Shown here piece by piece: positions 1 through 20,685 of a DNA stretch of 64,000 nucleotides. The notes beneath the pieces were generated by a model, which did not search any database, was not told the DNA's origin, and was given only the letters and a program-made list of their open reading frames with translations. Every line of letters begins with the position of its first letter. The first letter of the stretch is position 1. The stretch comes from Myxococcota bacterium (lineage in GTDB: Bacteria > Myxococcota_A > SURF-8 > G963663525): contig CAXXVK010000074.1 of assembly GCA_963676915.2 (NCBI GenBank), positions 1 through 64,000 of the forward strand, read 5' to 3'. The position numbers and the translations under genes are program-made.

Positions 1-214
1 AGATCCGGTCGATGTGCTCCAGCACGAGATTCAAAAGCCGGGTTTCGTGCCAGATCTCCAGACATTCGTGGATCAGCGATCCAAACCAGAGCGAGGCTTC
101 CTTCGACTGGATCGGGACAATCTGCTTGACGTAGCGCCAGTAGCAGGCGCGGCGGCAGTTGCGGAACTTCGACCACATCGAATAGGTGGTGGTGAGGCGG
201 GTGTCAGCCGTCAT
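1..214 (-). CDS. PD-(D/E)XK (Cas4/RecB-like) phage-type nuclease, N-terminal part; runs off window start
   Basis: Manual translation MTADTRLTTTYSMWSKFRNCRRACYWRYVKQIVP...LWFGSLIHECLEIWH matches the typical SxS..C.R...Y / G..IH..LE N-terminus. RBS GGAGG upstream. Not in the ORF track. Confidence 0.7.
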   Translation of the reverse strand, partial: MTADTRLTTTYSMWSKFRNCRRACYWRYVKQIVPIQSKEASLWFGSLIHECLEIWHETRLLNLVLEHIDRI

Positions 215-506
215 GGCGCACCTCCCGTCCGTCGGCACATCGTCCATCATCTTCCGGATCCAGCAGAGACGCGGCGCGCAGCAGATAGGAAGCGGCCTCC
301 CGCAATTCCTCAGCCATCAGCGACTCGTCCATGGTCTGCGTGATCTGGATGCCGCGATGACTGAAACGCACGATCCGGCTCAACTTGCCAATCGCGAAGG
401 CGATCGCGAAGGAGGGACTCATCCAAGGGAAATCGGCTCCGTCCGACCGGCTGGTGCGCCGGGGGTCACCGACGGCCTGCAGCATTTTCTCGATCTGCCG
501 CCTCAT
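204..506 (-). CDS. Hypothetical protein (~100 aa, MRRQIEKMLQ...)
   Basis: ATGA overlap with the upstream gene's stop (503-506); RBS GGAGG; overlaps the start of the nuclease gene. Confidence 0.55.
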   Translation of the reverse strand: MRRQIEKMLQAVGDPRRTSRSDGADFPWMSPSFAIAFAIGKLSRIVRFSHRGIQITQTMDESLMAEELREAASYLLRAASLLDPEDDGRCADGREVRHDG

Positions 507-856
507 GCCGAAACCTCCAGACCGTCCATGCGCTGCATATAGCGCCGCACGGTGCTGCGGGCCTGGCACAGAATCTGGCGAACGCGTTCGCGGCTGATCT
601 CGAACTCGCAGCCGACTTCCTCCAGCGTGCGTTCCTCGAGAACGCACAACCGCAGGATGCGCTTCATGCGTTCGGCCTTTTTGGGCTTGTCTTTGCCGAA
701 GCTTTCATCGATGGCGCGCTCGGCGATACGGAGGGCATCCTCAGCCAGCAAGTTTTCTTCGGGATCGGCGGCGGCGGATTCGAGCCGGTTGCATTCCTGC
801 ATGCGCCAGGCTTCGGCGTAGGCGGGATCTTCAGTAGGGAAACAGGTCATGGTCAT
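503..856 (-). CDS. Small protein with sigma-70 region 4 HTH only
   Basis: RTLEEVGCEFEISRERVRQI matches the sigma region 4.2 motif TLEEVG..F..TRERIRQI. RBS AAGGAG. Confidence 0.8.
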   Translation of the reverse strand: MTMTCFPTEDPAYAEAWRMQECNRLESAAADPEENLLAEDALRIAERAIDESFGKDKPKKAERMKRILRLCVLEERTLEEVGCEFEISRERVRQILCQARSTVRRYMQRMDGLEVSA

Positions 857-910
857 TGCTCCTTTTCGGCGGTTCGGACACGCGAGGTGTCGGAAGATGC
901 CGTGCTATAG

Positions 911-926
911 AGCAACGCCCGTGCCA
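911..926 (-). promoter_or_regulatory. Sigma-54 (-24/-12) promoter
   Basis: Minus strand TGGCACG-GGCG-TTGCT matches the consensus TGGCACG-N4-TTGCW, 55 bp upstream of the 856 start. A weak IHF-like site (TACCAGCCAGTTA, 933-945) lies just upstream. Confidence 0.8.
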
Positions 927-1026
927 TGCTGGTAACTGGCTGGTATTACATGGTTAATTGTGATTTACAGGCGGGTTTTCGAAGATTCGAAGAGTTCTGT
1001 GCGTAAAGAGGCCTTGGAAGGGTGAA

Positions 1027-1070
1027 AAGTGCTCTATTAAGTGCTCTATTTCCCGAAAAAGTGCTCTATT
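1027..1070. repeat. Three direct repeats of AAGTGCTCTATT
   Basis: Exact copies at 1027-1038, 1039-1050 and 1059-1070. Confidence 0.9.
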
Positions 1071-1119
1071 TCCAATTTCGAAAAACCGGGAGAAATGAGC
1101 GACAACCCTGTATTTACTA

Positions 1120-1986
1120 GGCAGTGTCGTCACGAGATATCAAGCCAGAGAGCGAGACATCTGATATGAACGGCTGCGAGGAAAGATGCCGCGTTTTTTG
1201 CGTATCGTGTAGCGATTCCTCGCCATCGTTTCAGTTTCAGAAAAGCGTTTTCGACCAGATGTCGAACACGATAAAGCTCTTTATCGTATGGTCGTTGAAC
1301 TTTCCGATTCTTTTTCGGAGGAATGACTGCCACCATCTCCGCGTTTTCGGCTTTTTCAAGGATCACGTTCGTATCGTAGCCGCGATCAGCCAATAAATAC
1401 TCGGCGTCGATTCCTTCGATCAATGCGCAAGCTTCCTTGCAATCTGCTCGGGTACCCTCTGTAACAATCGCTCGGACTGGATTACCATGCGCATCCACGG
1501 CCAAATGTATCTTACTGTTGAGCCCCCTTTTGTACGGCCCATCGCTTGATTGCCACCCTTCGCTCCTGCGGCGTCAGGATGCACTTTGACGTGGCTGGCG
1601 TCGATCATCAACCATTCGTAGTCGGGATCGTCAATGAGGATCTCAAGCAATTTCTCCCAGATTCCCTTGTCGCGCCATCGGCAAAAACGACGGTTCGTGT
1701 TGTTCCAGCCACCGTAATCCGGGGGTAGGTCACGCCACGGCGCACCGGTACGCAGAATCCAGAAAACAGCATTGATGAATCGTCGATTGTCTTCCGCCAC
1801 GCCTCCCCACTCGCCGGAGCGTCCAGGTAGATGGGGTTCCAGGAGATTCCATACGTGATCGGAAATATCGTGACGATGGTAGGCAGCTTCCATGGTAATT
1901 CCTCTCGATATATTCTAGTAAATAGAAATATATCGAGAAGCCGAGGATTTTGTCCAGATAAATCGTTTTCTCGTGTCGACACTGTC
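1120..1986 (-). mobile_element. IS5-family insertion sequence (IS427-like), copy 1, 867 bp
   Basis: 18-bp terminal IRs GGCAGTGTCGTCACGAGA / GACAGTGTCGACACGAGA; TA duplication within a CTAG target; same sequence as 41514-42380. Confidence 0.92.
1130..1893 (-). CDS. IS5-family transposase in two ORFs joined by a -1 frameshift
   Basis: ORF A has the motif WILRTGAPWRDLP; ORF B has DRGYD and RHLVENAFLKLKRWRGIATRY. A shift at AAAAGGGGG (~1523-1531) restores GGLNSKIHLAVD. Confidence 0.88.
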
Positions 1987-2287: not shown

Positions 2288-5200
2288 TTATGGAACTGTT
2301 TCTATATGAGCGCCACTTGATATTGTTGCCAGTGCATCCATTCCATTTCGCATTAGCGTTCGTAAAGTTATAACTGGGTACCCGGTATTTATCACAAAAC
2401 TAGAAGGAATGACCAACGAGGTCAGAAACAACGGCACGATTTTCCAAGTACCTTCACTCAAATTTAGTTTCTGCCTTACTTGATCCCAGTTGTCTTTCAA
2501 CCAAGCTATTCTGGCCTTATGCTTGTCAATTCTAACTTCTCTATCCGGGTAGCGTGGATCCCTTCTAAACAACATGTCAATCTCGCTACCAATTTCTACG
2601 GCATTTCGACTGGGATTCAGTCTTTTACATTCAACACAGAATAAAAGCATTTCGTTGGGATCCACAAGGAGTACATCAATATCGCCAAGTTCTTTGGGAC
2701 TATCGAAGAATTTCCCCGGTGCTATTGGCAAGTTTCTTTCAACACGAATTCCCAGATGTTGATTGCACCATGTATAAGCTCTGTTCTCGAAATCCTTTCC
2801 AAGCTGGTCGTTCATTGCACCGATATAGGATTGCAATTCTTGGGATTTTGCGTGCTTTTGTTTAAATTGGCCGTTCTCGATCAAGTGGTAGAGGTATTTG
2901 ATTGAATTATCGAGGTGCCGAGGCCCCCAATAAACAACCCATTTTTCAGGATCATCTTTGGGATGAATCATCAAAAATGGGCGTCTGATCATTGAGAGTC
3001 TTCTATTGTATCTGTAGGGGAGAATATCATCCATTTCAAAGCCAGTGGGGATATGATCCCATCGGCCTCGTGGCCTAAACGAAAATTCTTCAATAATATA
3101 ACGAACTCTTTCCTCTGCGACCTCTGACTTCTCCGATATCAAACTTATAAGTGCTTCATATTCTTCGCTTGGGCATGAGCTATCATATATTGCGAAGGCA
3201 GCAATAGACATCGATATAAATACACTGAATAACTCTTCTAGACTGCATCCGAATTCAGCAGCAATAGCTGCAGAGAGATCGGGCGGTAGTTCGATCTGGG
3301 GCTTTTCTTTCTCTCTTTCATGTTCGGAGTTCTCTTCTTTGCCAAGATCGTATGAATTATCCTCTTGAGCAGTTTCCAGATCTTCCAACGTTTTTGCATC
3401 CAAGAATCCATCGAGCATGTCTTTTCGATTGAGGTCGTTGCCTATCCGACCACTTTCAAGAATACTTAGTTTGTGGGAAAATACTCGGCAACGAATCTCG
3501 TCTCCCATCGCTCCCCAGTTGATATAATGATATGCGATCGCGAGCAATTCATCAAAATCATCGTCAGAAATTGGCGATGAAGCGGTATGCGGCTCAGCAA
3601 CCAGAAACTCAATAAGGAAGCGTGCCGACAACGCAAGATTCGCAATTTCTGAAGTGTGTTCCGCTTCGAGTTTCGCTTGTTTGGCAGTTCCATGAAAGCA
3701 AGCTGCGGAACGAGGTGCTGTATATTTGGCGAATTGTTGCTTCCATACTGTTCCTTCATTTACTAAAATAGCCTTCTCTAATAGTTGCTGATAGTCATAC
3801 TGTTTAATTTTGCTTCTCATACGATCTAGATGTATGGTGAGAATAGCTTCGTTTATTTCTCGACGATCTTGGTCGGCCACATCCCCCACAACCAAGGTTT
3901 TACCCGTAATGTTGACTACTTCATCAACTAACCCGTCCAGTTGTGACATCATGTTATGTTCACTGAGTTTACGATATGGTGGTAGATGTCGCATCTCTAG
4001 TCGAATGTCTTGGCTTGTGTCAATTCCGTTGAATTTCCTTTTCAATCCAACTGGAGCGATACTTTCAACTATTTGGTCCGTCTCAGATGCGGCAATCTTT
4101 TCTTCATCACAGTATTTATTAATCCCATGAATAATATTTCGAATTAAAAGCCTTTCTGCCTCATTGCTTTGACCGCTGGAAAAATATAGAAATACATCTG
4201 GGAGTGTCAGGATTATTTCGTTGTCAACAACTTCAGCCTGAAATTCGGAGCTCCCATTCCGCAACTCATCAGGTCTGTTATTGCCATCCCAAGTGGATGG
4301 GTTTTCCAGCCGAAAGGAAATTCTAATCGGTTCAGATAATATCACTTTTTGTTGCAGAGTAGGAAGTAGTTGCCATACCCAAAAAGCAAATGTTTCAACG
4401 AGGTGAAATGCCGTTCCAGATAGCTCCTGAGTTTTATAGTCAATATTAGGTCCAACCCATATAGGATATACGCATCCTTCAATGACCTGCTCGTAGTTTT
4501 TCGCGAAAAATTCTCCAATCGGCAAATATATTGGCACTTCATCACTATCTTCATGGCGGCGAACAACCTCTACCAACTTTGTTGGTTTTTGCCATCCCTC
4601 AACAAGGTGCTTATCCCAGGATCTCTTTGATTTGATTCTAAGTTCGCGACCGACGTCAGGAAGAATGTTAAGTAAATTAGGTTTTTGATCATCTGATATG
4701 TAAAAGGACTCACCATGGCCTTTATACAGTGAGTATATATCCAATGTAGAAGCACCCGGGCTGATTTTAACGCTTTTAGTAAACTCAGCCCACCCACGTG
4801 CAAATTTCCAAAGGGTCAGTTGGTCCATATCTCTCATTCTTGTCATGGTTTCTAGATCTTCAGCAAACAGCACTATTTGTTCGCACCCTTTGGGCGGAGC
4901 TTTGAATCCTGCGACTAACATTCTACCAAAATGCCCAATAACAAGAATATTTAAGATTTTTCTGTACGGGGAAGCATTTCCGGAGAGATGTTTTACTACA
5001 ATTTCTAATCTATTTCGCACTTGATCAAGTACTGAGTTTGCATCCCATGATGTCCATGGATCGGTGATGGAATAATTTTCCGCAAAATCGGTAACGACTT
5101 GAACATAACAAGCTATCTCAATATCGATATGAAATAGGACTTCAGTGTATTTTCTATCAGGCTCTGGCTCTAGACCTTCCATTGGAATAGGTTTAAAGCT

Positions 5201-6169
5201 CATGAGCATAGACGATTCTCTCACTGATGCTATTACCGCTTGATGATATGCATATGCCAATTTCTCCCGCATATTTGCTCTGATAGCAGAATTTAATATA
5301 AAATGTCGAATTGTCGAGGTGAATTCATGTGGGGCTAAAACGATGAAATCATCGCCAATCTCTAACAGTGGCTTTTGCAGTGTATACCATTGGTCTTTTT
5401 CAATCTCAGCTTTATCAATCGCATCAGCATGCAATGTAAATGGTTCAATTGCTGTTCGTGGAATATCGCGTAGGCTAAGCAAGGAATAAAACTCATCCCT
5501 ATTGAAAGAAACCCCATTTCTTAGAGTTTCCAGCATTGATTCACCGGGGATTTTAATTTGATCGATTGCGTAGTTTTCATTTGCTTCCCACCTGCCATGA
5601 CCCAGCTTATTTGCCACAGAGTCTGAAATAACGAGAAGCGCTTTTACTGGATCATACACTGAACCTATGAATTCATCGGGGAGAATCTTGCTAGGCGAAT
5701 TAAATACTGCTCTAAGAAGCTGAGTTGTCACGTATGCCCCAGGTCCAACATTGTCGGGATAAACTGTGTAATTGCCACCATGAAAACAAATATTTTCGGT
5801 CACTAGCTGCTCGGGTATATCCTCTTGTGGTTGGGCATCTAACAAATTCTGAGAGTTTGAAAACAAGGAATCCAATTCATTTTTATTTACAACTCTTGTT
5901 CCTTTTACCCGATCAAATTCCTGCAGAAGATGCCATATTGCACGTCCTATTTTCGCCCGGTGCATCAAATTATCTGGATCGACCAACAATCCAGATAGTG
6001 AAGAAAAAAGAGCCGAAGGATCGTGATTTTTAAACATCTTGAATACATCCTTCCTACTTTTCCTTTTATTGCCGAACATTGGTCGTTCAAATATTCCAGA
6101 TCTCAGGCAACATTTTTTATATTTCTTACCTGACCCACACGGGCATTTTGAGTTTCTGCCGATTTTCAT
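2288..6169 (-). CDS. Large SEC-C motif protein with C-terminal PD-(D/E)XK nuclease-like domain
   Basis: N-terminal GRNSKCPCGSGKKYKKCC; C-terminal FE...GDIDVLLVD...CVECKR. Visibly AT-rich. ATG 6169 follows GAGGTG (ORF track starts at 6175). Confidence 0.75.
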   Translation of the reverse strand: MKIGRNSKCPCGSGKKYKKCCLRSGIFERPMFGNKRKSRKDVFKMFKNHDPSALFSSLSGLLVDPDNLMHRAKIGRAIWHLLQEFDRVKGTRVVNKNELDSLFSNSQNLLDAQPQEDIPEQLVTENICFHGGNYTVYPDNVGPGAYVTTQLLRAVFNSPSKILPDEFIGSVYDPVKALLVISDSVANKLGHGRWEANENYAIDQIKIPGESMLETLRNGVSFNRDEFYSLLSLRDIPRTAIEPFTLHADAIDKAEIEKDQWYTLQKPLLEIGDDFIVLAPHEFTSTIRHFILNSAIRANMREKLAYAYHQAVIASVRESSMLMSFKPIPMEGLEPEPDRKYTEVLFHIDIEIACYVQVVTDFAENYSITDPWTSWDANSVLDQVRNRLEIVVKHLSGNASPYRKILNILVIGHFGRMLVAGFKAPPKGCEQIVLFAEDLETMTRMRDMDQLTLWKFARGWAEFTKSVKISPGASTLDIYSLYKGHGESFYISDDQKPNLLNILPDVGRELRIKSKRSWDKHLVEGWQKPTKLVEVVRRHEDSDEVPIYLPIGEFFAKNYEQVIEGCVYPIWVGPNIDYKTQELSGTAFHLVETFAFWVWQLLPTLQQKVILSEPIRISFRLENPSTWDGNNRPDELRNGSSEFQAEVVDNEIILTLPDVFLYFSSGQSNEAERLLIRNIIHGINKYCDEEKIAASETDQIVESIAPVGLKRKFNGIDTSQDIRLEMRHLPPYRKLSEHNMMSQLDGLVDEVVNITGKTLVVGDVADQDRREINEAILTIHLDRMRSKIKQYDYQQLLEKAILVNEGTVWKQQFAKYTAPRSAACFHGTAKQAKLEAEHTSEIANLALSARFLIEFLVAEPHTASSPISDDDFDELLAIAYHYINWGAMGDEIRCRVFSHKLSILESGRIGNDLNRKDMLDGFLDAKTLEDLETAQEDNSYDLGKEENSEHEREKEKPQIELPPDLSAAIAAEFGCSLEELFSVFISMSIAAFAIYDSSCPSEEYEALISLISEKSEVAEERVRYIIEEFSFRPRGRWDHIPTGFEMDDILPYRYNRRLSMIRRPFLMIHPKDDPEKWVVYWGPRHLDNSIKYLYHLIENGQFKQKHAKSQELQSYIGAMNDQLGKDFENRAYTWCNQHLGIRVERNLPIAPGKFFDSPKELGDIDVLLVDPNEMLLFCVECKRLNPSRNAVEIGSEIDMLFRRDPRYPDREVRIDKHKARIAWLKDNWDQVRQKLNLSEGTWKIVPLFLTSLVIPSSFVINTGYPVITLRTLMRNGMDALATISSGAHIETVP

Positions 6170-6260
6170 CTTCACCTCGATAGATTTGACATGAAAGCTG
6201 CATCGCTAAAGAATCATTCTATGCATGGGCCATATACTATGCGAGATAAATAAAATGATT

Positions 6261-7103
6261 TTAGCGAAATATGTGCTTAATCGCATTCTCTTTATTTATA
6301 ATGACAGCTCCTAGATAATACTCTCCCCGCCTGCAGATCAGGATGGACTCCTGCAAGTGCTCCCAAAGCCGTTCCTTCATCTTCGAGAACATCGAACTCA
6401 GATGACTGTCTTCGCCTTTCACGCCTACGCCGAAGTCATCGTATGGAACCATCGCCAGATAGCACTCCTTTTTCTTGCCGGTCCAGGCCTTCTGGGCATC
6501 GCCGAAAACCGCCAGCGCGTTCAACATCTGTTGAGTGACCTCCACCGGTTTACCGTTGACATGGATCCGGTAGCGCCGGTGGCCCACCTCTTCACAAGCC
6601 AGATCGATTTCATCTTTGCCCGTGGGCTTGGGCTTTTTCACCCGCTTGGGCTTGCGTTTGGTTCCTTCAGCCACCCGTTGCTCCCGGTCTTTCAGAAGAT
6701 CCGTGATTTCCTGCAGAATGCTGCTGTTGCCTTCAGCGGTGAAGGGTTTCTTCACAAACGACACCAGCGCCCCAGCCCGTTGCCGCTTCATGATGTCGAC
6801 GACGGTGTTCGTGTCATTGCCATACCCTGAGACCACCAACACCGGCAGGCCGGGATGGTTTTCGAGGATATGGTCGAGCAGGCGTTTGCCGAAATTCACA
6901 TCAGCGGCCGGACTGCCCGGCTCCTGCGGCAGACGCAGATCGAGCACCACATAATCGTAATTCTTATCGGAGATGCTCGTCTTGGCTTCCTCAACCGATC
7001 CGACCTCGTCGTAGCTGTGATTCAGATTTTTGAGATACGATGCGATCTCCAGACGGTTGTCCGGTTCGTCATCGATAATCAGTGCATGATAAAGGGCTTT
7101 CAT
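6261..7103 (-). CDS. Response regulator (REC + probable winged-helix output)
   Basis: LIIDDE, VVLDLRLP (phospho-Asp), VVSGYG, KKPF. The C-terminal ILICRRGEYYL resembles an OmpR-type wing. Confidence 0.85.
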   Translation of the reverse strand: MKALYHALIIDDEPDNRLEIASYLKNLNHSYDEVGSVEEAKTSISDKNYDYVVLDLRLPQEPGSPAADVNFGKRLLDHILENHPGLPVLVVSGYGNDTNTVVDIMKRQRAGALVSFVKKPFTAEGNSSILQEITDLLKDREQRVAEGTKRKPKRVKKPKPTGKDEIDLACEEVGHRRYRIHVNGKPVEVTQQMLNALAVFGDAQKAWTGKKKECYLAMVPYDDFGVGVKGEDSHLSSMFSKMKERLWEHLQESILICRRGEYYLGAVIINKENAIKHIFR

Positions 7104-7115
7104 CGATTCACTCCA

Positions 7116-8213
7116 TCAGGTTCCAAGCGGAACGCGGCAACGGAAGACGGTCCAGGATTCACCGTCGCTGTCAACCTCAATCGCTCCGCGATGCTCCAGT
7201 TCAACCACGCTGTAGGCCAGATAAAGTCCCATGCCCAGGTGGGGCCCCTGTTCCTTCTTACCGGAGGCGAAGGGCGTAAAGATCACCCGCCTGTACTCCT
7301 CCTTGATGCCGGGTCCGCTGTCCCGGATGACAAATTCGATCTCGCCAGCCTCTTCAAACAGAGTAGCGGAAAATTCGACGCGGCCGCCCTCCGGCGAGGC
7401 TTCGATTGCGTTTTTCACGATGTTGATCAGGGCGCGCGCCAGACGTTCAATCACGACCCGTAGATTTACGTCGGGCGGCTCTCGGACAATCAGGCTGACA
7501 CTTCTCTCATCAGCCAGATCCTGCACCGACTGGCAGACCTGATCGACCAGGGATCCGCATTGGACCACGTCAAAGTGCAGCTTCCGTCCCTCCGCAATGA
7601 ATCGCATAGACTCGCTGAAGTCTTCGAGGCGTTTGCTACGCTGAGCAATCCGGTTCAATGTTTCGGAATGCTTGCGCAGGGTGTGGTCGGAGAAGTCTTC
7701 TCTCAACCTAGACAATTGCGAATTGAGTGGATGTAAAAGATTCTTCAACTCATGGGCGAATTCGTTGATCGCCAGCCCTTGTGCATCGCGCAGCGCCGTC
7801 ATGACATCTTTGTGGAAGGCGTTCGGATTCTTGTTGGAAGCCGCTTCGATCTTGCTGGCCAGTCGGTCCAGTGCGCGTCCGTCCTTTTCGTCCTCTTTCT
7901 GCTCGGTAGACTGGCTGCGCAGGCGTTTCACGCGCAGGGCGGCCTTTTTTACATAGGGGTTCGCATCATCAAGCAGGCCGGGAATCAGCTTCCAGAACCA
8001 GGAATCTGGAAGCAGAGTGGCTTTTTCCGCCAGCGCCTGACGCACCTCCCATTTCCCATCCGAGGACAACAGTTTCAGCAGTTTGAACGCTTCGGTCGCA
8101 TCATCACTTTCGCCCCGGCGTACCTGGTCGACGAGATGCTCGACCGCCTTGACCCGGTCGCCACCGTTCGATGACGTCGCCAGTTTTTCAAGATCCCTAG
8201 CCGCGCTTGACAT
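7116..8213 (-). CDS. Cytoplasmic histidine kinase with N-terminal HEAT-like repeats
   Basis: H-box FAHELKN, N-box NIVKNAIEA, DSGPGI, F-box, GMGL. Repeats SDGKWEVRQALA and DDANPYVKKAAL; no TM segment. Start MSSAARD follows GGAG. Confidence 0.85.
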   Translation of the reverse strand: MSSAARDLEKLATSSNGGDRVKAVEHLVDQVRRGESDDATEAFKLLKLLSSDGKWEVRQALAEKATLLPDSWFWKLIPGLLDDANPYVKKAALRVKRLRSQSTEQKEDEKDGRALDRLASKIEAASNKNPNAFHKDVMTALRDAQGLAINEFAHELKNLLHPLNSQLSRLREDFSDHTLRKHSETLNRIAQRSKRLEDFSESMRFIAEGRKLHFDVVQCGSLVDQVCQSVQDLADERSVSLIVREPPDVNLRVVIERLARALINIVKNAIEASPEGGRVEFSATLFEEAGEIEFVIRDSGPGIKEEYRRVIFTPFASGKKEQGPHLGMGLYLAYSVVELEHRGAIEVDSDGESWTVFRCRVPLGT

Positions 8214-10092
8214 CGCGATATCTCCTTCCGCGTTCCTCAAACGCCTCCAGGCCGCCTTCCATGAGATTGACGATGAAATCGCGAATCTCCTTTCGATCGA
8301 GGTTTCCTTGTTCCGCCACTTCGGCCTGGCGTCCGTCCGATTTGAGGACCACGACATTCTTCGCCTCGCCCAGCACCGGGATGTTGGGGTTGTGGGTCAC
8401 GAAGATCATCTGCCGCCGCTCCTGTGTTTCTTTCAGCTTCGGCACGACCGTATCCGAGACATAGGAGTTGTCGAGGTTGTCTTCGGGCTGATCGATCAAC
8501 AGGGGTGCCACACTGTCGAGCAGCAGGATGGGCAGGATGGCGGAGCATTTCTGGCCGGTGGATACCCGTTCGGTGGGTCGGAACCCGGCCCCGGTATCGA
8601 GCTGAATCTCGACCAGATCATCCACGTCGATCACTTCCAGATCGTAGCGGACGTTGGAATCCTTCAGAAGCGCCTGAACCAATGCGGCGGCGAAATCATC
8701 CGTCACCTCAGAGGACTCGACGATCGCGTTCGCATTCTCCCTACCAACAAACATGGCCAAACGACGCGGGTCGATGGCGCTGGTCACCTTGGCTACCCGT
8801 GGCCGAAACTTGGTGCCGGAGCCTTTCATTTGGTCGTTTAGAAAGTCTGCGTAGGTTGTAGTATCCGCCGCCTGCCGCACTTCGATGCGGATCTTTCCAG
8901 CCAACTGTTGGTTTAGCGACTCAGCTGCCTGCTGCCGCACATCGTAGCGTTTCTGGCAGGCGTCCGAGAATTCCCATAACAGTTTGTCCCGCTCCTCCCG
9001 CATCTCTTTGATCTGCTCTTCGATGCGCATACGGGAGCGCTGCTTATTTTCCAGTTCCCGGATCTGCTTGGCCAGCGCATCCCGGTCCTTTACGCGGGCC
9101 TGCTTGTCCTTCTGCTTGGCCAGAGTATCGTGGTATTTCACATCTTCCGGCGCATGCCGTTTCTTCAACTCCTCCTGCATGGTATCGGCAGCACGATTCA
9201 TCTCGTCCAGGCACCCCAGAGCGTCATTGATCAGATCCTGAAACCGCTTGGCCTGATCCAGGTAAGTGACGCGGAGCTGCTCGAACAGTTCGCCGTTGGG
9301 ACCGCTTAGAAGTTCATCGGCAAAGACTTCCTTCAGACCCGTAAACATGCCCGTTCGCAAAGGCTCCGTGCGGCGACGGGCGCTATCGAGGATGGGTGGT
9401 ACGGCGTTCAGCGCGGCGAGTTCGTTATCGCGCATCTGCTTGGCCGTAGACGCAGCTTCCACTTCCGGGCCTACATCCACACCTTCCAGTTCCTTGTTCA
9501 GTCGATCGAGTTTTTCCTTCAGCGCGGGCAGTTCCTGAAGATTGACATCCTCCCCGCGCAGTTGCTGTTCCAGCAGGAGCAGGCTTTTCGCGTTCTGCTC
9601 CAGCTTCGTGCGTTTGCGCTGAATCTCCTGGCGCACCTCCCATATCTGCTTACGCTCGAAGCGATCCAGAAGTTCCCGCTGTGAAGGCGAATCGCTGGCG
9701 ATGGTTTCGATTTCGTTCTGACTGAAGACCGCTGCGCTGATGGACAGGCCCGAATCGAGGATCTTCGGATCCACAACCTCACCGGACTGGTCCATGACGA
9801 TCGGCGATTCCTTGTAGGCCCGCTTGATCGTAAAGCGTCCACCGTCCTCGGTTTCGAATTCCACCTCCACTACACCGTTGTGCAGGTTTCCCTTGAGCAG
9901 CTTGCCGAGGCGGTCGTCGGGATCGCCGCCGTTGATGCTGCCGCCCAGTGCGTAGCGAATCAGTTCCTGCAACGTGGTCTTCCCGGTGCCACGCCCGCCG
10001 ATAATGCAGTTGAGGCCATCGGTAAAAACTATATCCAGCCCGTCGAGAAAACCGCCGGTCACCCGGATCCGGCGAATCTGATGATGTCTCAT
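8197..10092 (-). CDS. ABC/SMC-type coiled-coil ATPase (TrlF/Ppl-ATPase-like, no PHP domain)
   Basis: Walker A GGRGTGKT, Q-loop FSQNE, long coiled coil, signature STGQ, Walker B LIDQPEDNLD, H-loop VTHNPN. Start at ATG 10092 after GGAGG. Confidence 0.85.
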   Translation of the reverse strand: MRHHQIRRIRVTGGFLDGLDIVFTDGLNCIIGGRGTGKTTLQELIRYALGGSINGGDPDDRLGKLLKGNLHNGVVEVEFETEDGGRFTIKRAYKESPIVMDQSGEVVDPKILDSGLSISAAVFSQNEIETIASDSPSQRELLDRFERKQIWEVRQEIQRKRTKLEQNAKSLLLLEQQLRGEDVNLQELPALKEKLDRLNKELEGVDVGPEVEAASTAKQMRDNELAALNAVPPILDSARRRTEPLRTGMFTGLKEVFADELLSGPNGELFEQLRVTYLDQAKRFQDLINDALGCLDEMNRAADTMQEELKKRHAPEDVKYHDTLAKQKDKQARVKDRDALAKQIRELENKQRSRMRIEEQIKEMREERDKLLWEFSDACQKRYDVRQQAAESLNQQLAGKIRIEVRQAADTTTYADFLNDQMKGSGTKFRPRVAKVTSAIDPRRLAMFVGRENANAIVESSEVTDDFAAALVQALLKDSNVRYDLEVIDVDDLVEIQLDTGAGFRPTERVSTGQKCSAILPILLLDSVAPLLIDQPEDNLDNSYVSDTVVPKLKETQERRQMIFVTHNPNIPVLGEAKNVVVLKSDGRQAEVAEQGNLDRKEIRDFIVNLMEGGLEAFEERGRRYRDVKRG

Positions 10093-10180
10093 ATCGTTCC
10101 TCCATCGTGAGTCTGCCAACAGGTTTTTACAAAACCCATCCTGCCTCAACTCACATTTCCTGTCGCCTGCGGCAGTTTTC

Positions 10181-10202
10181 AAAATCCTGCTAGCAGGATT
10201 TT
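10181..10202. promoter_or_regulatory. Perfect 22-bp palindrome, candidate operator
   Basis: AAAATCCTGCTAGCAGGATTTT lies in the divergent intergenic region between the ATPase and bEBP genes. Confidence 0.55.
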
Positions 10203-10373
10203 ACCCGTATCTCCAACTCCTGCTCGCAATGTCGTCACTGTTTGCCGCAGGAATACAAGCAGGCATCCATGCTGCCGCCCATCATGCCACAGGCGATTCC
10301 GGCGCATGGAAGAAGTACAGTATAGCTCAAAACGGCTCACAACGAATCGTTTTAATGTAATCAAGGACATAGC

Positions 10374-11399
10374 GTGTCACAAGAGTTGACGTATTCCAGA
10401 ACAGAAGGGCTGATCGGCGGCGATGCCGCCATGGATGCCCTGTTTGATACAATCCGGGGTATCGCCCGGATCGGGGATACGTCCATCCTGATACAAGGCG
10501 AAACCGGCGTCGGCAAGGAAGGCTGCGCCAGAGCCATCCACTATAACAGCCCGAGGAAAAGCGGCCCGCTCGTAACAGTCAACTGCGCCGCCATTCCGGA
10601 TTCTCTGGCTGAAAGCATGTGGTTCGGCCACAAAAAGGGAGCCTTCACCGGGGCCACAACCGATAAGGCTGGATATTTCGAAGCCGCGCATGGAGGCGTG
10701 CTTTTTCTGGATGAGGTCGGCGATCTGTCGCTGGACTCCCAGGCTCTGTTGCTTCGGGCCTTACAGGAAAAGGAAATCGTGAGAATCGGCGAAACGAAGC
10801 CTCGCCGGGTTGATGTCCGAATCGTCTCGGCCACCAACAAAGATCTGCTCGGCATGATCGAACGTGGTGAGTTTCGGCGGGATCTTTATCATCGCCTAGC
10901 GGAAGAGCCTCCCCTTATCATTCCCGCGCTTCGCGATCGACCTGAAAGCATTGCCGTACTGATTCAACACTTCATCGACCAGTTTTTCCGTCAGTACAAG
11001 GTCCGGATAGGCCTGCCGGAATCCGTCTTGGACGTACTGCGAGCCTTTTCATGGCCGGGCAATGTCCGTCAGCTCAAATCCACGATCAAGTATCTGGTGC
11101 TTACGGTTGCTCGCCGTGGGGGGAAGCAAATTCGGCAGGAAGACCTGCCGGAAGATATCCGCAACAGCCAGCTGCCTCAAATTCCCGCACCATACAGAAG
11201 CGACGTACTCCGCGACGCCATTCTGAGGGTACTGGGTCAGATGCAGAGTCTGTCCGTCAGCGATCTGGTTGATCGGGTCGGTCGGAATCGGCACGCCATC
11301 AGCTATCAGTTGGAACAGATGGAATCGGAAGGACTGGTCCGGATCGAGCGCCGACGCGGGCGAAGTGGAAACCTCGTGCATCTGCGCGCCGGAGATTGA
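10374..11399 (+). CDS. Sigma-54-dependent enhancer-binding protein with no N-terminal sensor and a winged-helix C-terminus
   Basis: GETGVGKE, GAFTGA, LFLDEVG, FRRDLYHRL, WPGNVRQL. The C-terminal LSVSDLVDRVGRNRHAISYQLEQMESEGLVRI is ArsR/MarR-like. Confidence 0.92.
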   Translation: MSQELTYSRTEGLIGGDAAMDALFDTIRGIARIGDTSILIQGETGVGKEGCARAIHYNSPRKSGPLVTVNCAAIPDSLAESMWFGHKKGAFTGATTDKAGYFEAAHGGVLFLDEVGDLSLDSQALLLRALQEKEIVRIGETKPRRVDVRIVSATNKDLLGMIERGEFRRDLYHRLAEEPPLIIPALRDRPESIAVLIQHFIDQFFRQYKVRIGLPESVLDVLRAFSWPGNVRQLKSTIKYLVLTVARRGGKQIRQEDLPEDIRNSQLPQIPAPYRSDVLRDAILRVLGQMQSLSVSDLVDRVGRNRHAISYQLEQMESEGLVRIERRRGRSGNLVHLRAGD

Positions 11400-11409
11400 T
11401 TTTACATCT

Positions 11410-11425
11410 TGGCATGATGGTTGCT
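11410..11425 (+). promoter_or_regulatory. Sigma-54 (-24/-12) promoter for the recombinase operon
   Basis: TGGCATG-ATGG-TTGCT, 10 bp after the bEBP stop and 46 bp before the next ORF. Confidence 0.75.
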
Positions 11426-11471: not shown

Positions 11472-11663
11472 ATGATGGATATGCCCCAGACGAACAACCC
11501 CCAACATGAAATCGCAGATATTCTCGCCACCGGTTACCTGCGCTACAGAAGAAGACAGGCTGCTGAATGGGTGAAAGAAAAAACAGAGAAAACCCTTGAT
11601 GATGTCACCCAACGAGGGAAGCTCCGGACGACGGAGAATCGAACTCCGGAGAAAGGAGCCTGA
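11472..11663 (+). CDS. Small hypothetical protein preceding DUF2924
   Basis: EIADILATGYLRYR resembles small ORFs recalled upstream of DUF2924 genes; its stop is 1 bp before the next start. Confidence 0.55.
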   Translation: MMDMPQTNNPQHEIADILATGYLRYRRRQAAEWVKEKTEKTLDDVTQRGKLRTTENRTPEKGA

Positions 11664-11664
11664 T

Positions 11665-12171
11665 ATGACGAGCAAACCCGGTAGACGACAACGTGACACC
11701 ATCCTGCATCAACTGGCGGAACTTGATTCCCTGCCCACAGCGGAATTGAAGAAGCGCTGGAACGTGCTCTATGGACAGGAGCCGCCGCGTTTCAACCGAC
11801 AGTTCCTGATTAAACGCCTGGCCTACAGGATTCAGGAAATCGCCTATGGCGGAGTCGACGATCGAACGCGGACCCGAATGAATGACCTGCTTGAAGATGA
11901 AGGTTATGACGAGTTGGGGCGAAAAGTGCGCAAACCGACTCGCCGGGCGTCTGAACGCACCATCGTGCCGGGTACGGTCCTGGTGCGCGAATGGCAAGGG
12001 GAGCGCCATGAGGCGGTCGCCATGGACGATGGCGGTTTTGAGCATCGCGGCATGCCCTACCGCTCCTTATCAGCGGTGGCGCGGGCCATCACCGGCACAC
12101 GCTGGAATGGCCCGGCGTTCTTCGGATTGCGAGGCAAGACGGTTCCATTGAAGGAGGCCGCTCGTGATTAG
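11665..12171 (+). CDS. DUF2924 family protein
   Basis: LAYRIQEIAYGG, PGTVLVREWQG, YRSLSAVARAITGTRWNGPAFFGL. RBS AAGGAG. Confidence 0.85.
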   Translation: MTSKPGRRQRDTILHQLAELDSLPTAELKKRWNVLYGQEPPRFNRQFLIKRLAYRIQEIAYGGVDDRTRTRMNDLLEDEGYDELGRKVRKPTRRASERTIVPGTVLVREWQGERHEAVAMDDGGFEHRGMPYRSLSAVARAITGTRWNGPAFFGLRGKTVPLKEAARD

Positions 12172-13726
12172 GGACCGAAAGCAGACCCAAAACAATCCGA
12201 TCATTCGTTGCGCCATCTACACTCGCAAATCCACCGACGAGAATTTGGACTCTGACTTCAACAGTTTGGATGCCCAGCGAGAGTCTTGCGAGCATTTCAT
12301 CCAGTCCCACGCCCGCGAGAACTGGCATGCGCTGGACGCCCGATACGACGACGGAGCGTATTCAGGCGCAAGCATGGAGCGCCCGGGACTGAAACGGCTG
12401 CTGGCAGACATTGAGGACGGCATGGTGGACTGCGTTGTGGTCTACAAAATTGACCGGCTGTCGCGATCCATCGCGGATTTCACGCGCATGATGGAGTTTT
12501 TCAAACAACGCGATATCGCCATGGTCAGCGTGACCCAGGCCTTCAACACGAACACCTCCAGCGGCACGCTCATGGTGAATTTATTAATGACGTTCGCCAG
12601 TTACGAAAGAGAAGTTATCGCCGAGCGCATCCGGGACAAGGTGGCGGCCAGCAAAAAACGAGGTAAATACATGGGTGGCGTGCCGCCCCTCGGTTACGAT
12701 GTGGATCGTGACAGAAAACGGCTGGTCGTGAATTCCGAGGAAGCCGCTCTGGTGCGATTCATCTTCCGTCGTTACCTTCAATTGCATTCCGCAGTAGCGC
12801 TCATCAAAGAGTTGAACGGAAAAGGCCTGACCACCAAGTCCTGGGTAACGAAAAAGGGCATTCATCGGAAAGGCCGCGCCTGGAACAAATCGCACATCTA
12901 TCGCCTGCTGAACAACCCTATTTATGCAGGCAAGATCAAACACAAGGATCGGCTCTATGAGGGCGAACACGAGGCGATCATCGAAAAGTCCTTATGGGAT
13001 GAGGTGCAGTCGACGATCGGATCCGAGGGAAAAGCAGGAATTCGGCATAATGACACCTTGTCGCCGTTAAAGGGGATTCTTGTCTGCGGTCACTGCCGCA
13101 AACCGATGGGAGCCACATTCACAACAAAGGACGGTAAGCGCTACCGCTATTACCTCTGCCAACAGGCGGGAAAATCCAGTTACGACAGCTGTCCGATTCG
13201 TTCCGTACCAGCCGGAGATCTGGAAAACCTGGTGCATATTCAGATCAGGCGGATGCTCGGCTCCCCGGACATCGCCGCCGAAACGTTCCGGGAACTGGTG
13301 AGACGGGAAGCCGAGACGGTAAAGAAACTTGAACAACAGACCGACAAGCTGAGAGAGGAACTGTCAACACTGCAATCCGCTCGTAAGCGACTGATTGAAC
13401 CTGGGGATGGAGCATCAAAACTTGTGGCAGAGGAGCGGATCGGAATCGAAGAGAAAATCAATCATCTTACGCTTCAGCTTGCGAGCATGGATGCGGAACG
13501 CGAATTCTACAGCAACAATTTACTGACCGAACATGAATTGGCAGCGGAACTTCAGCGCTTGGATCTCTTCTGGAATGAACTCTTTCCCGGTGAAAAGACA
13601 CGGATTATCAAGCTGCTGGTGGATGAGATCATCGTGAATAAAGACGGAATCGACATTGCGTTGAAACCGACTGGTGTCGAAGGAGTTGCGTTGGAGATGT
13701 CGGGAGGACCACATGCACAACCGTGA
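12164..13726 (+). CDS. Large serine recombinase (resolvase + recombinase + Zn-ribbon domains)
   Basis: CAIYTRKS catalytic Ser motif, SGASMERPGL, YKIDRLSRS, CGHC...YRYYLC. Confidence 0.93.
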   Translation: MIRDRKQTQNNPIIRCAIYTRKSTDENLDSDFNSLDAQRESCEHFIQSHARENWHALDARYDDGAYSGASMERPGLKRLLADIEDGMVDCVVVYKIDRLSRSIADFTRMMEFFKQRDIAMVSVTQAFNTNTSSGTLMVNLLMTFASYEREVIAERIRDKVAASKKRGKYMGGVPPLGYDVDRDRKRLVVNSEEAALVRFIFRRYLQLHSAVALIKELNGKGLTTKSWVTKKGIHRKGRAWNKSHIYRLLNNPIYAGKIKHKDRLYEGEHEAIIEKSLWDEVQSTIGSEGKAGIRHNDTLSPLKGILVCGHCRKPMGATFTTKDGKRYRYYLCQQAGKSSYDSCPIRSVPAGDLENLVHIQIRRMLGSPDIAAETFRELVRREAETVKKLEQQTDKLREELSTLQSARKRLIEPGDGASKLVAEERIGIEEKINHLTLQLASMDAEREFYSNNLLTEHELAAELQRLDLFWNELFPGEKTRIIKLLVDEIIVNKDGIDIALKPTGVEGVALEMSGGPHAQP

Positions 13727-15280: not shown

Positions 15281-16036
15281 CTATTCGCCGAGGTTTGGGT
15301 CGAATTCCTCAAACTCTCGAAATATTCGTTGGCCTTGGCTATTTTTATTTCTGCCAAGCTTTGTTTTGCGTATTCTGTCCTGCAAATAAGCGACTGCTTT
15401 CTCAAAATGCTCAATCGGTGTATCCTTGACTTTGTATTTAAAAACTCTTTGATATGCGACTCGAATGCGAGAATAATTCATTTTCTCACCGTTTTTCTCA
15501 CAGTCCCATTTCTTGAATTCGTTGTATCGAGAGATCAGATACTCAATATAACCGATTAGCCTTTTTTCAGATCCAAGGGTTCCTGGAATAATGATTGGAT
15601 TTGATTTGCTTCCTGATTTAGAAATTCGTGTCGTAACGTTGAGGTCGCCGTGTACCTCAGTTCCTTCTTTTATTGTTACATTCCCATCACCATGAATGCT
15701 TGTATTTGAAATCATCGATGGTCTTGATGGTTCATTTCCCTGCGCTTTCTTCTTGAACGCCTGGAAGTCAACTACGTTGCTGGATGGTGTCAATAGCTCT
15801 CTTTTTATCTTATACAGTTTGGTGCGCGATAGCGTGCCTGAATCCGCTTTGGAATGACAGCCAGAACAAAGAACAATCATATCATCAAAATTATGTTCCT
15901 GGTTGTTTGCATATGGGACAATGTGATGGATGACAAGAGAATCAACGTCGGTCTCACCGCAAACTGGACATTTAGAACTGACTTCCTGATACAGTTTCTT
16001 TTCAAGACGCTTCGGAATTGACTTTCGCCTCACCAT
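15281..16036 (-). CDS. HNH endonuclease domain protein
   Basis: CPVCG...IHHIVP...LCSGCH. Confidence 0.8.
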   Translation of the reverse strand: MVRRKSIPKRLEKKLYQEVSSKCPVCGETDVDSLVIHHIVPYANNQEHNFDDMIVLCSGCHSKADSGTLSRTKLYKIKRELLTPSSNVVDFQAFKKKAQGNEPSRPSMISNTSIHGDGNVTIKEGTEVHGDLNVTTRISKSGSKSNPIIIPGTLGSEKRLIGYIEYLISRYNEFKKWDCEKNGEKMNYSRIRVAYQRVFKYKVKDTPIEHFEKAVAYLQDRIRKTKLGRNKNSQGQRIFREFEEFDPNLGE

Positions 16037-16044
16037 TCTGTCTC

Positions 16045-17328
16045 CTATTCATTCCCCACTGGCTCCGGAAAATTATTTGAAAGTGTACCTGTTAGTTTGC
16101 TGCTCAATGTTGAAAGGAACATTTTTCCTTGTCCATCCAAATTATCGCCCAATCCAAAACACAGACTTCTTACCAGGATGCGACCGATCTGGACATTCAG
16201 CGGCTGGGGTAGAGACTCGGGATAGATTAGGAATGCCATTTCGCATCCCTTCGCCTCGGCGTATGCCACGGCCTGGTAGATATCCGCCTCTGCCGCTTGC
16301 TCAGGAACCTTGTATTTCGTGTCCATCACGCACAGCACACGCCCGGTATCTCTTTCTTCGACGACGAGATCGATGTTCATGCTGATGGCGTTGTTTTCCT
16401 CGAATGTCACCCGCTCTTGGGTCTTAAGTTGAAGCCCGCTGTCGATGTGGTGTTCCAGCCAGCGCGCTACGAACAGTTCGTAAAGTCGACCCATGTTGAC
16501 GAGGAACGGAATCATTGTCCGATCACCCCAGTCATGGCCCGGTCCCATCTGCTCCAGGAAGAAGCGGCAAAGCGCGTGTAGAGGGTGGTAATCGTTGTTC
16601 AAACGATTATAGAGCCGTCCGATGCAAGATTTCGGTAGTTGCGGCTCCAGTCTGGCCGCACCGCGAAGTTGTAAAAAAGCCTGTCTGACAACCGATAGCG
16701 CGTCATCCCGGCAGATACCGGAGCGGGCGATAGTGAAAAGTGTCCAGGCGAGGATGCGATTGTCCTCGTTGTCGGCATTATGGTCTTCATAGCGGCAGGG
16801 AAAATCAGCCTCCCAAGGTCGAAGCATAGCCCGAGCCATGTCGACTCGTCCACGGAGATAGGGTAATCGTTCTCCACGGCCTTGATATTCGCGATATAAG
16901 CCCTTTCGGCCACGATCCAGGACACGTTTTGCCAAAATCTTCGCCAACCGTTGGTAGATGTCATCCAGCGAAGTGCTTTGCGTCAACCCCTCAAAAATGT
17001 GGAAGTCCCCAAGATTATAGGCCCACTCCAGCATGCGGAAGAGATTGCCAATGCTGGTTTTAGGTGTGAGCGATAAGGCCAGTTCATCCGAAAGCGGAAT
17101 ATGACCGACATAGCCCTGGGAGCAGAGTTTCCATCGCATATCTGTTTTAGGATCGGGAAAATCGATGCTCAAGTACTTGCCGAAGGTGCGCCATAGCTTT
17201 TCGCCAAAAGCGAGTGTCATCGTATCCGACGGGAGATACTCGGGTTCGTATTCCCTGATCCGGATCACATTGGAAGCGACATCATTCACCTCGGACGCTC
17301 TCCTTAACTTTCTCCCAACGGAATTCAT
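16045..17328 (-). CDS. mcrC: McrC-family restriction endonuclease subunit (start possibly GTG 17289)
   Basis: NMGRLYELFV, IDLV...MDTKYK, ADIYQAVAYA; directly follows an McrB-like gene. Confidence 0.85.
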   Translation of the reverse strand: MNSVGRKLRRASEVNDVASNVIRIREYEPEYLPSDTMTLAFGEKLWRTFGKYLSIDFPDPKTDMRWKLCSQGYVGHIPLSDELALSLTPKTSIGNLFRMLEWAYNLGDFHIFEGLTQSTSLDDIYQRLAKILAKRVLDRGRKGLYREYQGRGERLPYLRGRVDMARAMLRPWEADFPCRYEDHNADNEDNRILAWTLFTIARSGICRDDALSVVRQAFLQLRGAARLEPQLPKSCIGRLYNRLNNDYHPLHALCRFFLEQMGPGHDWGDRTMIPFLVNMGRLYELFVARWLEHHIDSGLQLKTQERVTFEENNAISMNIDLVVEERDTGRVLCVMDTKYKVPEQAAEADIYQAVAYAEAKGCEMAFLIYPESLPQPLNVQIGRILVRSLCFGLGDNLDGQGKMFLSTLSSKLTGTLSNNFPEPVGNE

Positions 17329-20635: not shown

Positions 20636-20685
20636 TATCCATTCCCCTTGAATTTTCAAGCGTCCACCGCACCTGGAGAGAATCG

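Follow-up and report, generated by a model that had tools for sequence, protein, structure and literature searches.

A three-gene cassette on mobile DNA that may couple a PHP-less Ppl/TrlF-type ATPase to a two-component system

To our knowledge, nearly all histidine kinases studied so far sense through membrane segments, PAS domains or GAF-type domains. How, then, would a cytoplasmic kinase that carries none of these receive its signal? The question is raised by a locus in a 64,000-nt stretch of DNA from a Myxococcota bacterium (positions 1 to 64,000 of contig CAXXVK010000074.1, assembly GCA_963676915.2; hereafter the window), in which the gene of an SMC-like ATP-binding cassette (ABC) ATPase is followed by the genes of a HEAT-repeat histidine kinase and a response regulator. 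The original prediction, made from the letters alone, took the three genes for an intracellular threat-sensing system in which the ATPase senses, the HEAT domain passes the signal on to the kinase, and the output is transcriptional rather than toxic. Our analysis points to an ATPase-gated two-component switch carried by mobile DNA, a reading to which we give a probability of roughly 55%. A threat-sensing or defence role is conceivable; the setting on mobile elements speaks at least as strongly for a switch that regulates the carrier as for immunity.

The open reading frame (ORF) coordinates bear out the tight linkage of the three genes: the ATPase stop and the kinase start overlap by 17 bp (8197-8213), and 12 bp (7104-7115) lie between the kinase and the regulator. 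The ATPase ORF could be extended to a TTG at 10182; the alignment with homologues begins at the ATG at 10092. According to our in silico analysis, the translation carries the motifs LLIDQPEDNLDN and FVTHNPNIP and matches AAA_23, AAA_21 and SMC_N in Pfam (SMC_N over residues 19-571). In 25 homologues G32, G35, G37, K38, T40, Q125, S511, G513, D534 and E537 are invariant, and H567 of the H-loop nearly so. By its residues the protein thus appears to have the Walker A, Q-loop, signature, Walker B/D-loop, H-loop and split head of an SMC/Rad50-like ABC ATPase. The NCBIfam model TrlF_fam_ATP, which has a cut-off of 350 bits, is matched at 312 bits and only over its profile positions 288-944 of 944, so the N-terminal PHP part is missing; positions 1-287 are unmatched and Pfam finds no PHP domain. 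Ppl_antiphage reaches 146 bits against a cut-off of 1000 and aligns with the C-terminus only, as does the PADLOC Ppl model; PADLOC gives further partial matches to LmuB and PDC-M49A, and the models of LmuB, AriA and GajA match the N-terminus weakly. Proteins of about 630 aa from more than 120 clusters align with the ATPase over its full length at 33-59% identity, all of them without PHP. The description of this gene as an ATPase with an IDQPEDNLD/THNPN-type signature and no fused PHP domain therefore stands, and we regard it as a PHP-less relative of Ppl and TrlF.

The kinase matches HATPase_c at 9e-20 (Pfam), and its H154, N268, D298, G327 and G329 are invariant in 46 homologues. These residues would provide the phospho-accepting histidine of a dimerisation and histidine phosphotransfer (DHp) domain and the N, G1 and G2 boxes of a two-component kinase. 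At the N-terminus, the same 46 homologues share a motif of two HEAT repeats, D-P-KWEVR...D-x-N-x-x-V-R-x-A-A, on which the Pfam models HEAT and HEAT_2 remain below threshold (E 0.006-0.007). A profile of this region matches 24,932 proteins at E<=1e-3, mostly generic multi-repeat HEAT proteins with 5-31 stretches in the top matches; being swamped by these, the search of the representative library yields no census of domain architectures. Pfam finds no PAS or GAF domain in the kinase, and we recognised no transmembrane segment in it, since the maximum Kyte-Doolittle mean over 19 residues is only 0.94. As first described, the kinase thus has HEAT-like repeats in the place of a membrane or PAS/GAF sensor.

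The regulator is named by Pfam only over its receiver (REC) domain (Response_reg, 2e-11), which leaves about 150 residues unnamed. REC was found in all 50 regulators compared, with D12, D55 and K119 invariant, and the acidic pocket, the phospho-accepting aspartate and the lysine of a receiver appear to be present. Judged by their residues, kinase and regulator make up a bona fide two-component system, for which phosphotransfer is predicted. The remainder of the regulator is more divergent. An additional winged helix-turn-helix (wHTH) of DeoR or HTH_11 type is found in 13 of the 50 regulators, none matches Trans_reg_C at E<=0.01, and none carries an enzymatic or effector domain. Against the PDB, a profile search found only VanR (E 0.49) and ToxR (E about 1). 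With AlphaFold2 (AF2), the whole regulator was modelled with a predicted local distance difference test score (pLDDT) of 73.7, and its full-length Foldseek matches are OmpR/PhoB-family regulators, VanR being first at 4e-9. The isolated C-terminal domain (residues 158-272; pLDDT 73.6) shows a beta-sheet, helices and a hairpin, and every PDB match listed for it is an OmpR/PhoB-type DNA-binding domain or its carrier, the matches being weak (E 5e-3 to 0.4, template-modelling score 0.42-0.55). The model is consistent with the N-terminal beta-sheet, three helices and C-terminal hairpin wing of the OmpR/PhoB-like fold. From this fold it would follow that the output of the cassette is DNA binding: the cassette seems to carry no effector, and its sole output domain is predicted to bind DNA. 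The probable winged helix and the transcriptional, non-toxic output of the original prediction both agree with this result.

Are these three genes a unit? We examined the best 80 of 556 confirmed places, with one genome per species, found with a 25-sequence ATPase alignment. A HEAT-kinase directly follows the ATPase in 59 of these 80 genome loci (tblastn, HEAT profile), and a REC gene lies within 500 nt after the kinase in 55 of the 56 loci that could be assessed, three further contigs ending too early. In the viral contigs of IMG/VR, 58 loci encode relatives, 41 of them with a full-length ATPase, and the kinase is present in 31 of these 41. The genome loci belong to Planctomycetota, Verrucomicrobiota, Myxococcota, Alphaproteobacteria, Acidobacteriota, Gemmatimonadota, Chloroflexota and Lentisphaerota-type metagenome-assembled genomes. 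Our results show that the order of the triad is conserved across at least seven phyla while the flanks vary: ORF clustering over the 80 genome loci found no conserved gene family on either side. The catalytic residues of ABC ATPase, histidine kinase and receiver are all retained in the aligned sequences. Pairwise distances over 49 loci are correlated between ATPase and kinase (r 0.92), ATPase and regulator (0.91) and kinase and regulator (0.88), values that include a contribution from shared ancestry, and none of 2000 Mantel permutations reached them. In these distances, the kinase is matched no less closely by the ATPase than by its own regulator. Since the triad recurs so widely, the objection that its genes might not occur together elsewhere fails.

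In 16 loci, mostly from Acidobacteriota (L063-L081), the gene after the ATPase starts with a related HEAT-like domain (hhalign probability 92.6%, E 4.5e-7) that is joined to another output. In 11 of them the domain is fused to PP2C/SpoIIE (Pfam 7e-52 in L064, the other ten by alignment) and in the other 5 to a kinase. The variant kinase is followed by a REC-APH/TCAD9 protein in L068, the only locus scanned with Pfam, and the corresponding ORF family (c24) is present in all five. An ORF family of 190-217 aa without Pfam match (c36) also occurs at these loci, before the ATPase in L077, L078 and L081 and about 3.5 kb upstream in L068. The comparison suggests that ATPase and HEAT domain form the invariant core and that the signalling outputs vary. 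Because the ATPase and its docking domain are constant and the signalling domains interchangeable, we argue that the ATPase is the input. An apparent ATPase-kinase fusion in L044 was set aside; it is most likely a frameshift near the overlap, as a normal ATPase C-terminus and stop are found in another frame.

We predicted the complex of the full ATPase with kinase residues 1-130 in three runs from custom alignments. The ipSAE interface score was 0.69, 0.68 and 0.69, compared to 0.00 for the best control; in calibration, 58 of 80 solved complexes attained this mark, as did 2 of 110 mismatched pairs, rates that are approximate for custom alignments such as these. The three runs agree on at least 97% of contacts, with a partner pLDDT of at least 80. 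On the ATPase, the modelled contact residues are 369-387, 405-409, 438-443 and 460-462, all in the middle region (369-462). On the kinase they are 16-18, 54-56, 59, 63, 84-87, 90-91 and 94, and map to the conserved HEAT motifs KWEVR and DxNxxV. Contact positions of the kinase exceed the remainder of its N-terminus in conservation (2.36 vs 1.73 bits, permutation p 0.013). In the PDB, a search with the ATPase profile retrieves nothing beyond SMC/Rad50 head fragments (best E 1.2e-6); as no close relative has been solved, it is unlikely that the model recalls a known complex. The docking of the HEAT pair on the middle region of the ATPase is thus supported by a model. Of the proposed signalling from ATPase to kinase through the HEAT domain, the binding step gains this backing as a prediction.

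Table 1. Position of the cassette and of neighbouring features in the window
Feature	Position	Strand	Remark
PHP-less Ppl/TrlF-type SMC-like ABC ATPase, 631 aa	8197..10092	-	ATG at 10092; proposed sensory subunit
Cytoplasmic histidine kinase, 365 aa: HEAT pair, linker helix, DHp (H154), catalytic and ATP-binding (CA) domain	7116..8213	-	internal ATG
Kinase HEAT-repeat pair, residues about 38-108, motifs D-G-KWEVR and DDANPYV	7890..8102	-	predicted ATPase-docking surface
Response regulator, 280 aa: NtrC/NtrX-like REC (8-123) and predicted divergent OmpR/PhoB-like winged helix (about 165-265)	6261..7103	-	
Divergent intergenic region between ATPase operon and bacterial enhancer-binding protein (bEBP) gene	10093..10373	.	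perfect 22-bp palindrome 10181-10202 and related half-sites
Short sigma-54 activator (bEBP), no sensor domain, lineage-specific fourth gene	10374..11399	+	Pfam
Sigma-54-type promoter TGGCAT-N5-TTGC, 11 nt past the bEBP stop, toward DUF2924 and recombinase	11410..11424	+	
DUF2924 gene (11596-12171) and large serine recombinase (12164-13726)	11596..13726	+	Pfam

What carries the cassette? The ATPase is present in only 5 of 40 relatives searched. Its distribution is patchy: a 97%-identical copy lies in a genome of another family of the same order (G004), and a genome of the same genus has only a 40%-identical one. The DNA block common to the window and G004 covers window positions 6304-11384 (5.08 kb, 92.2% identity) and extends exactly from the regulator to the bEBP gene. 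In G004 it is flanked by portal, head-morphogenesis and sigma-like genes on one side and by a tyrosine integrase on the other. Window positions 1-1091 are likewise shared with G004, being 90% identical to its phage-like DNA; this stretch holds a small sigma-factor-like ORF at 503-856 (phrog_351). We read the cassette as a self-contained, horizontally mobile three-gene signalling unit.

Downstream of the bEBP gene, the window encodes a DUF2924 protein (Pfam 2.5e-47) and a recombinase with Resolvase, Recombinase and Zn_ribbon_recom domains. Homologues of both are present in 13 of the 31 viral triad loci, a fraction that is no population estimate because IMG/VR is biased toward integrative elements. 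Typically they are divergent from the cassette, with the DUF2924 start 470-720 bp from the ATPase (L103, L110, L115, L117, L132 and L134, and the genome loci L013 and L022). In L013 and L022, a 152-aa ORF separates DUF2924 from the ATPase; it has no Pfam match and a low-complexity translation, and was rejected as spurious. By ORF clustering, a wider family of large serine recombinases is present at 8 of the 80 genome loci, and the 89 immediate neighbours of the triad include 3 tyrosine integrases and 2 resolvase-type recombinases.

As originally noted, the bEBP gene is divergent from the minus-strand operon. Its product shows the sigma-54-interacting AAA+ domain (Sigma54_activat, 7e-63) with the GAFTGA motif, the lid and a MarR-like wHTH, and no N-terminal sensor domain; rpoN is encoded in the genome. 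The protein matches the phage family phrog_7998 at 9e-47. Full-length homologues (36-46% identity) lie within 6 kb of a triad in G001, G003 (two loci) and L096, and the bEBP adjoins the triad in the window and in G004, inside the common block. Of six loci, four (window, G004, L093 and L096) have the bEBP and ATPase genes immediately back to back, and two (L092 and L094) have other genes in between. Outside this lineage, a bEBP close to the triad is rare, with 3 of 59 genome and 2 of 31 viral triad loci. The bEBP is a fourth gene specific to the lineage and not a part of the triad at large.

A sigma-54-type site lies within 50 nt of the bEBP stop and points away from the gene in four of the six loci. 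With 7 sites of at most one mismatch in the 128 kb of strand of the window, the chance rate is about 5e-3 per 100-nt target, so four of six are not explained by chance. The window site, TGGCATGATGGTTGC, has one mismatch to the consensus; that of G004, TGGCATAGACATTGC, overlaps the bEBP stop codon; those of L096 (6741-6755, minus strand) and L093 (7395-7409, minus strand) lie at the bEBP 3' end. The sites listed at bEBP 3' ends include, besides those of the window, L096 and L093, one in L091 (3178-3193). L018 has a similar site between bEBP and triad; L092 and L094 have none within 50 nt past the bEBP stop. The genes behind the promoter are DUF2924 and the serine recombinase in the window, a tyrosine integrase in G004, a RecD-like helicase and a 1205-aa protein without Pfam match in L093, and a RecD2-like helicase and an archaeo-eukaryotic primase (AEP) in L096. 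L096 has a second site of perfect consensus (12167-12181, plus strand) after the regulator, facing PD-(D/E)XK, AAA_24, DUF669, ERCC4, DUF2924 and recombinase genes, which by their annotation make up a phage replication and recombination module. Short, sensor-less bEBPs of phrog_7998 with a sigma-54 promoter at their own 3' end suggest sigma-54-dependent expression in a family of phage-like elements. Of the targets first proposed, the route through bEBP and recombinase thus gains support, and the nuclease gene discussed below does not.

The spacer of 281 bp between ATPase and bEBP differs from that of G004 at 11 of 296 aligned columns and is thus better conserved than the coding block with its overall identity of 92%. 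It contains the palindrome of Table 1 (AAAATCCTGCT/AGCAGGATTTT), which is unique in the window and in the 5.18-Mb genome, and half-sites at 10113-10130 and 10212-10228.

Together, these data would fit the following mechanism. By analogy with Ppl, the Ppl-type ATPase would sense an intracellular nucleic-acid or nucleotide cue. The HEAT contact would pass the state of the ATPase to the kinase and so gate its autophosphorylation, and the phosphorylated regulator would bind DNA and alter transcription of the genes of the carrier element. In the window and its lineage, the relay may run through the divergent bEBP to the sigma-54 promoter and on to DUF2924 and the serine recombinase. Since a sensor-less bEBP needs control in trans or by its own expression, the triad is an obvious candidate for its controller. 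Because the sigma-54 promoter of the bEBP faces DUF2924 and the recombinase, the cassette may here be the induction or excision switch of a phage-like integrative element, and not an immune system with a toxic effector. A wider generalisation is possible, though less likely than not: widespread phage-like and integrative elements would decide on induction or excision by a two-component system instead of a LexA/CI-type repressor, with a HEAT-docked Ppl-type ATPase as sensor, and the ATPase-HEAT pair would be reused on chromosomes with PP2C and kinase-like outputs. In such elements, the signal read by the ATPase would be DNA ends or a shortage of nucleotides, caused by host damage or by a competing phage, and the phosphorelay would turn on recombinase and replication genes, here through the bEBP and sigma-54 promoters.

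Several observations weigh against the switch as we propose it. The association of the genes is not universal: one triad-type locus (L034) lacks the regulator, and 5 of the 80 loci have no recognised HEAT partner (no HEAT match in L002-L005; in L069 the neighbouring ORF lay outside the analysis). Four of these five, the Polyangia and Nannocystis loci L002-L005, have the best tblastn scores among genome contigs (35-39% identity), yet no kinase or regulator. In all four a protein of 389-447 aa (c25) is encoded divergently upstream, with a PDZ domain recognised by Pfam in L002 only; an ankyrin/TPR protein follows the ATPase in L005, and Pfam has no matches among the neighbours in L004. The link to mobile elements is also uneven. 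IMG/VR is enriched for integrative elements by construction, DUF2924 and recombinase homologues adjoin only 4-6 of the 59 genome triad loci, and a close recombinase (E<1e-30, within 8 kb) is found in 4 of 59. As most genome triad loci have no close recombinase homologue, control of a recombinase cannot be the general role of the cassette. The defence genes considered in the next paragraph would also fit a defence role. In the predicted complex, conservation of the ATPase side of the interface did not differ significantly (p 0.11). In neither the window nor L092-L094 does a sigma-54 promoter point toward the ATPase operon, and no binding site of the regulator is established. As a candidate for such a site the 22-bp palindrome was rejected, since two substitutions break the G004 copy; upstream of the ATPase in 54 loci, palindromes are not enriched (mean score 6.1 vs 5.5 in shuffled sequence), and 2 of 54 loci beat all shuffles. 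Finally, the cue assigned to the ATPase, DNA ends and/or the nucleotide pool, is a transfer from Ppl by pure analogy: activation of E. coli Ppl needs nucleotide depletion together with 3'-OH ends, as stated in a review (PMC12904381).

The best of the rival explanations, which we nevertheless consider unlikely, is a genuine anti-phage system in which the ATPase detects phage DNA or nucleotide depletion and the regulator either is the effector, through shutdown or dormancy, or activates neighbouring defence genes. WYL/BrxR-type regulators are known to switch on such neighbours. The nearest named relatives of the ATPase are indeed Ppl and TrlF. Moreover, at least 9 of the 89 immediate neighbours have strong defence matches (PADLOC E<=1e-10): SAVED-HNH (2), type I restriction endonuclease (2-3), type III restriction endonuclease, prokaryotic Argonaute (pAgo), Aga, BrxL and PDC-M68A (2). 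This is a raw count without a control set, so an enrichment of defence genes near the triad is not demonstrated, and the neighbours vary between loci. A large, single gene of defence-like type stands behind the regulator, in the same orientation, in the window, in L014 (NERD and kinases) and in L015 (sacsin/NOV_C). In the window, this is a gene at 2288-6175 (minus strand) encoding a 1295-aa protein with an N-terminal SEC-C motif and a near-full-length, distant match to Upx (PADLOC 1.5e-53; NCBIfam 203 bits against a cut-off of 1900). The gene has a GC content of about 0.41, the genes around it one of about 0.56, and G004 lacks it in the block that is otherwise 92% identical; for both reasons we consider it a recent local insertion. 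The proposal that this downstream nuclease gene is an output target is not supported, since the gene is no conserved partner of the triad. A fragment of an insertion sequence (IS)-type transposase lies between it and the 1-1091 stretch (1420-1893, minus strand).

The surroundings of the cassette in the window also hold defence-like genes. Beyond the recombinase, a block at 15281-20659 (minus strand) encodes a McrB-like GTPase, McrC (427 aa) and an HNH protein (251 aa). The GTPase, of 1125 aa, has a very long N-terminal extension, with the NCBIfam McrB match (2e-47) at residues 879-1112 and a PDC-S02-like PADLOC match at 461-573. A tmRNA gene with the tag peptide AEENYSMAA follows at 25200-25549 (minus strand). 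The stretch with McrBC-like, HNH, recombinase and cassette genes has the look of a single island, or of two, integrated next to ssrA, a setting that a defence system would share. However, none of the 50 regulators carries an effector domain, and in PADLOC v2.0.0 the kinase matches no model, the regulator is matched through its receiver only, and no listed system covers the full gene set. As far as that catalogue goes, the check made for an already described system came out negative. A description of the triad was not found in a full-text literature search either; an earlier account in Krishnan et al. 2020 (an ABC ATPase classification) or its supplements is possible.

Alternatively, the cassette could belong to the normal chromosomal equipment and control genes for DNA repair or stress, sensing chromosome breaks or replication trouble without any special link to mobile elements or phages. 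SMC/Rad50-like ATPases are classical repair proteins, Ku and LigD adjoin one locus, and many genome loci, especially the Acidobacteriota PP2C variant, lie among genes of housekeeping appearance, such as those of MacB/FtsX permeases and outer-membrane barrels. We find this improbable given the patchy distribution (5 of 40 relatives, with the 97%-identical copy in a different family), the frequency of copies on viral contigs and the recombinases and integrases adjoining many of them.

Could the signal run in the opposite direction? The HEAT domain might recruit or regulate the ATPase as an output, for instance as a DNA-binding or compacting machine, and the regulator would set expression only. 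The complex model carries no signal direction, and HEAT subunits of cohesin and condensin regulate SMC ATPases. Such a reversed flow seems highly improbable to us, for the kinase would then be left with no other input domain, and in the variant loci the HEAT domain is joined to signalling outputs of PP2C or kinase type beside a constant ATPase. That three independent genes came together by island shuffling is suggested only by the mosaic nature of the window, with its Upx-like gene and IS fragment insertions, and is refuted by the neighbourhood counts in genome and viral loci, the tight spacing and the correlated divergence.

What we rate as new in the ATPase-gated switch is a two-component system with a Ppl-type ATPase as its sensor; the kinds of component were already known. 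If it is true, an SMC-like ABC ATPase as the sole input of a kinase would be a new route from the state of the DNA or the nucleotide pool into a phosphorelay. We know of a Ppl-type sensor only within a suicide/exonuclease defence protein, and here it would have gained a transcriptional output instead. Should its connection with recombinase and replication genes be borne out as well, widespread serine-recombinase elements and prophages would have an induction switch that is independent of SOS. The module of three genes is small, soluble and well conserved, and is therefore amenable to binding, phosphotransfer and DNA-binding assays.

The components can be compared with known systems one by one. 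Ppl (Gao_Ppl) and TrlF have the same kind of ABC/SMC-like ATPase, with DQPEDNLD and THNPN motifs, and the ATPase part of TrlF is matched over its full length. However, they carry a PHP exonuclease in a single gene with the nuclease fused, whereas the ATPase of the cassette has no PHP domain, scores below both curated cut-offs (350 and 1000) and is followed by a kinase in most genome loci. On these grounds, sequence comparison places the cassette outside the Ppl/TrlF family. Lamassu LmuB, Wadjet JetC, PARIS AriA and Gabija GajA likewise use an ABC/SMC-type ATPase as a sensor of nucleic acid or infection, but those systems couple it to nucleases or toxins, and the cassette would couple it to a phosphorelay with a DNA-binding output. 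The bEBP of the window resembles PspF-type activators in its AAA+ sigma-54 domain with GAFTGA and in having no N-terminal sensor; it differs in its MarR-like wHTH, where PspF-type proteins have a Fis-type HTH, in its association with phages and in the putative target promoter at its own 3' end.

The predicted contact recalls cohesin and condensin, whose HEAT-repeat subunits (HEAT proteins associated with kleisins, HAWKs) sit on the SMC heads. In both cases a HEAT-repeat surface would be docked on an SMC-type ATPase, but the cassette has two repeats only, fused to a kinase, and the predicted contact lies between the coiled coil and the C-terminal half of the head. The likeness is one of arrangement. 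As for the two-component system itself, the DHp-CA kinase with its H, N, G1 and G2 boxes, the D-D-K receiver and the predicted winged-helix fold are those of EnvZ/OmpR and PhoR/PhoB. Unlike these, the kinase is soluble and has a HEAT pair as its input, with no membrane or PAS/GAF sensor, the pair of genes is preceded by a conserved ATPase gene, and the effector domain is not seen by Trans_reg_C. In the sources that could be searched, we found no earlier instance of a HEAT-pair kinase paired with an ATPase. The principle that a separate cytoplasmic protein binds the kinase and supplies the signal is that of NtrB, controlled by PII, and of KinA, controlled by Sda and KipI; in the cassette, an SMC-like ABC ATPase of 631 aa would take the part of this accessory protein, with a HEAT pair as the module that docks it.

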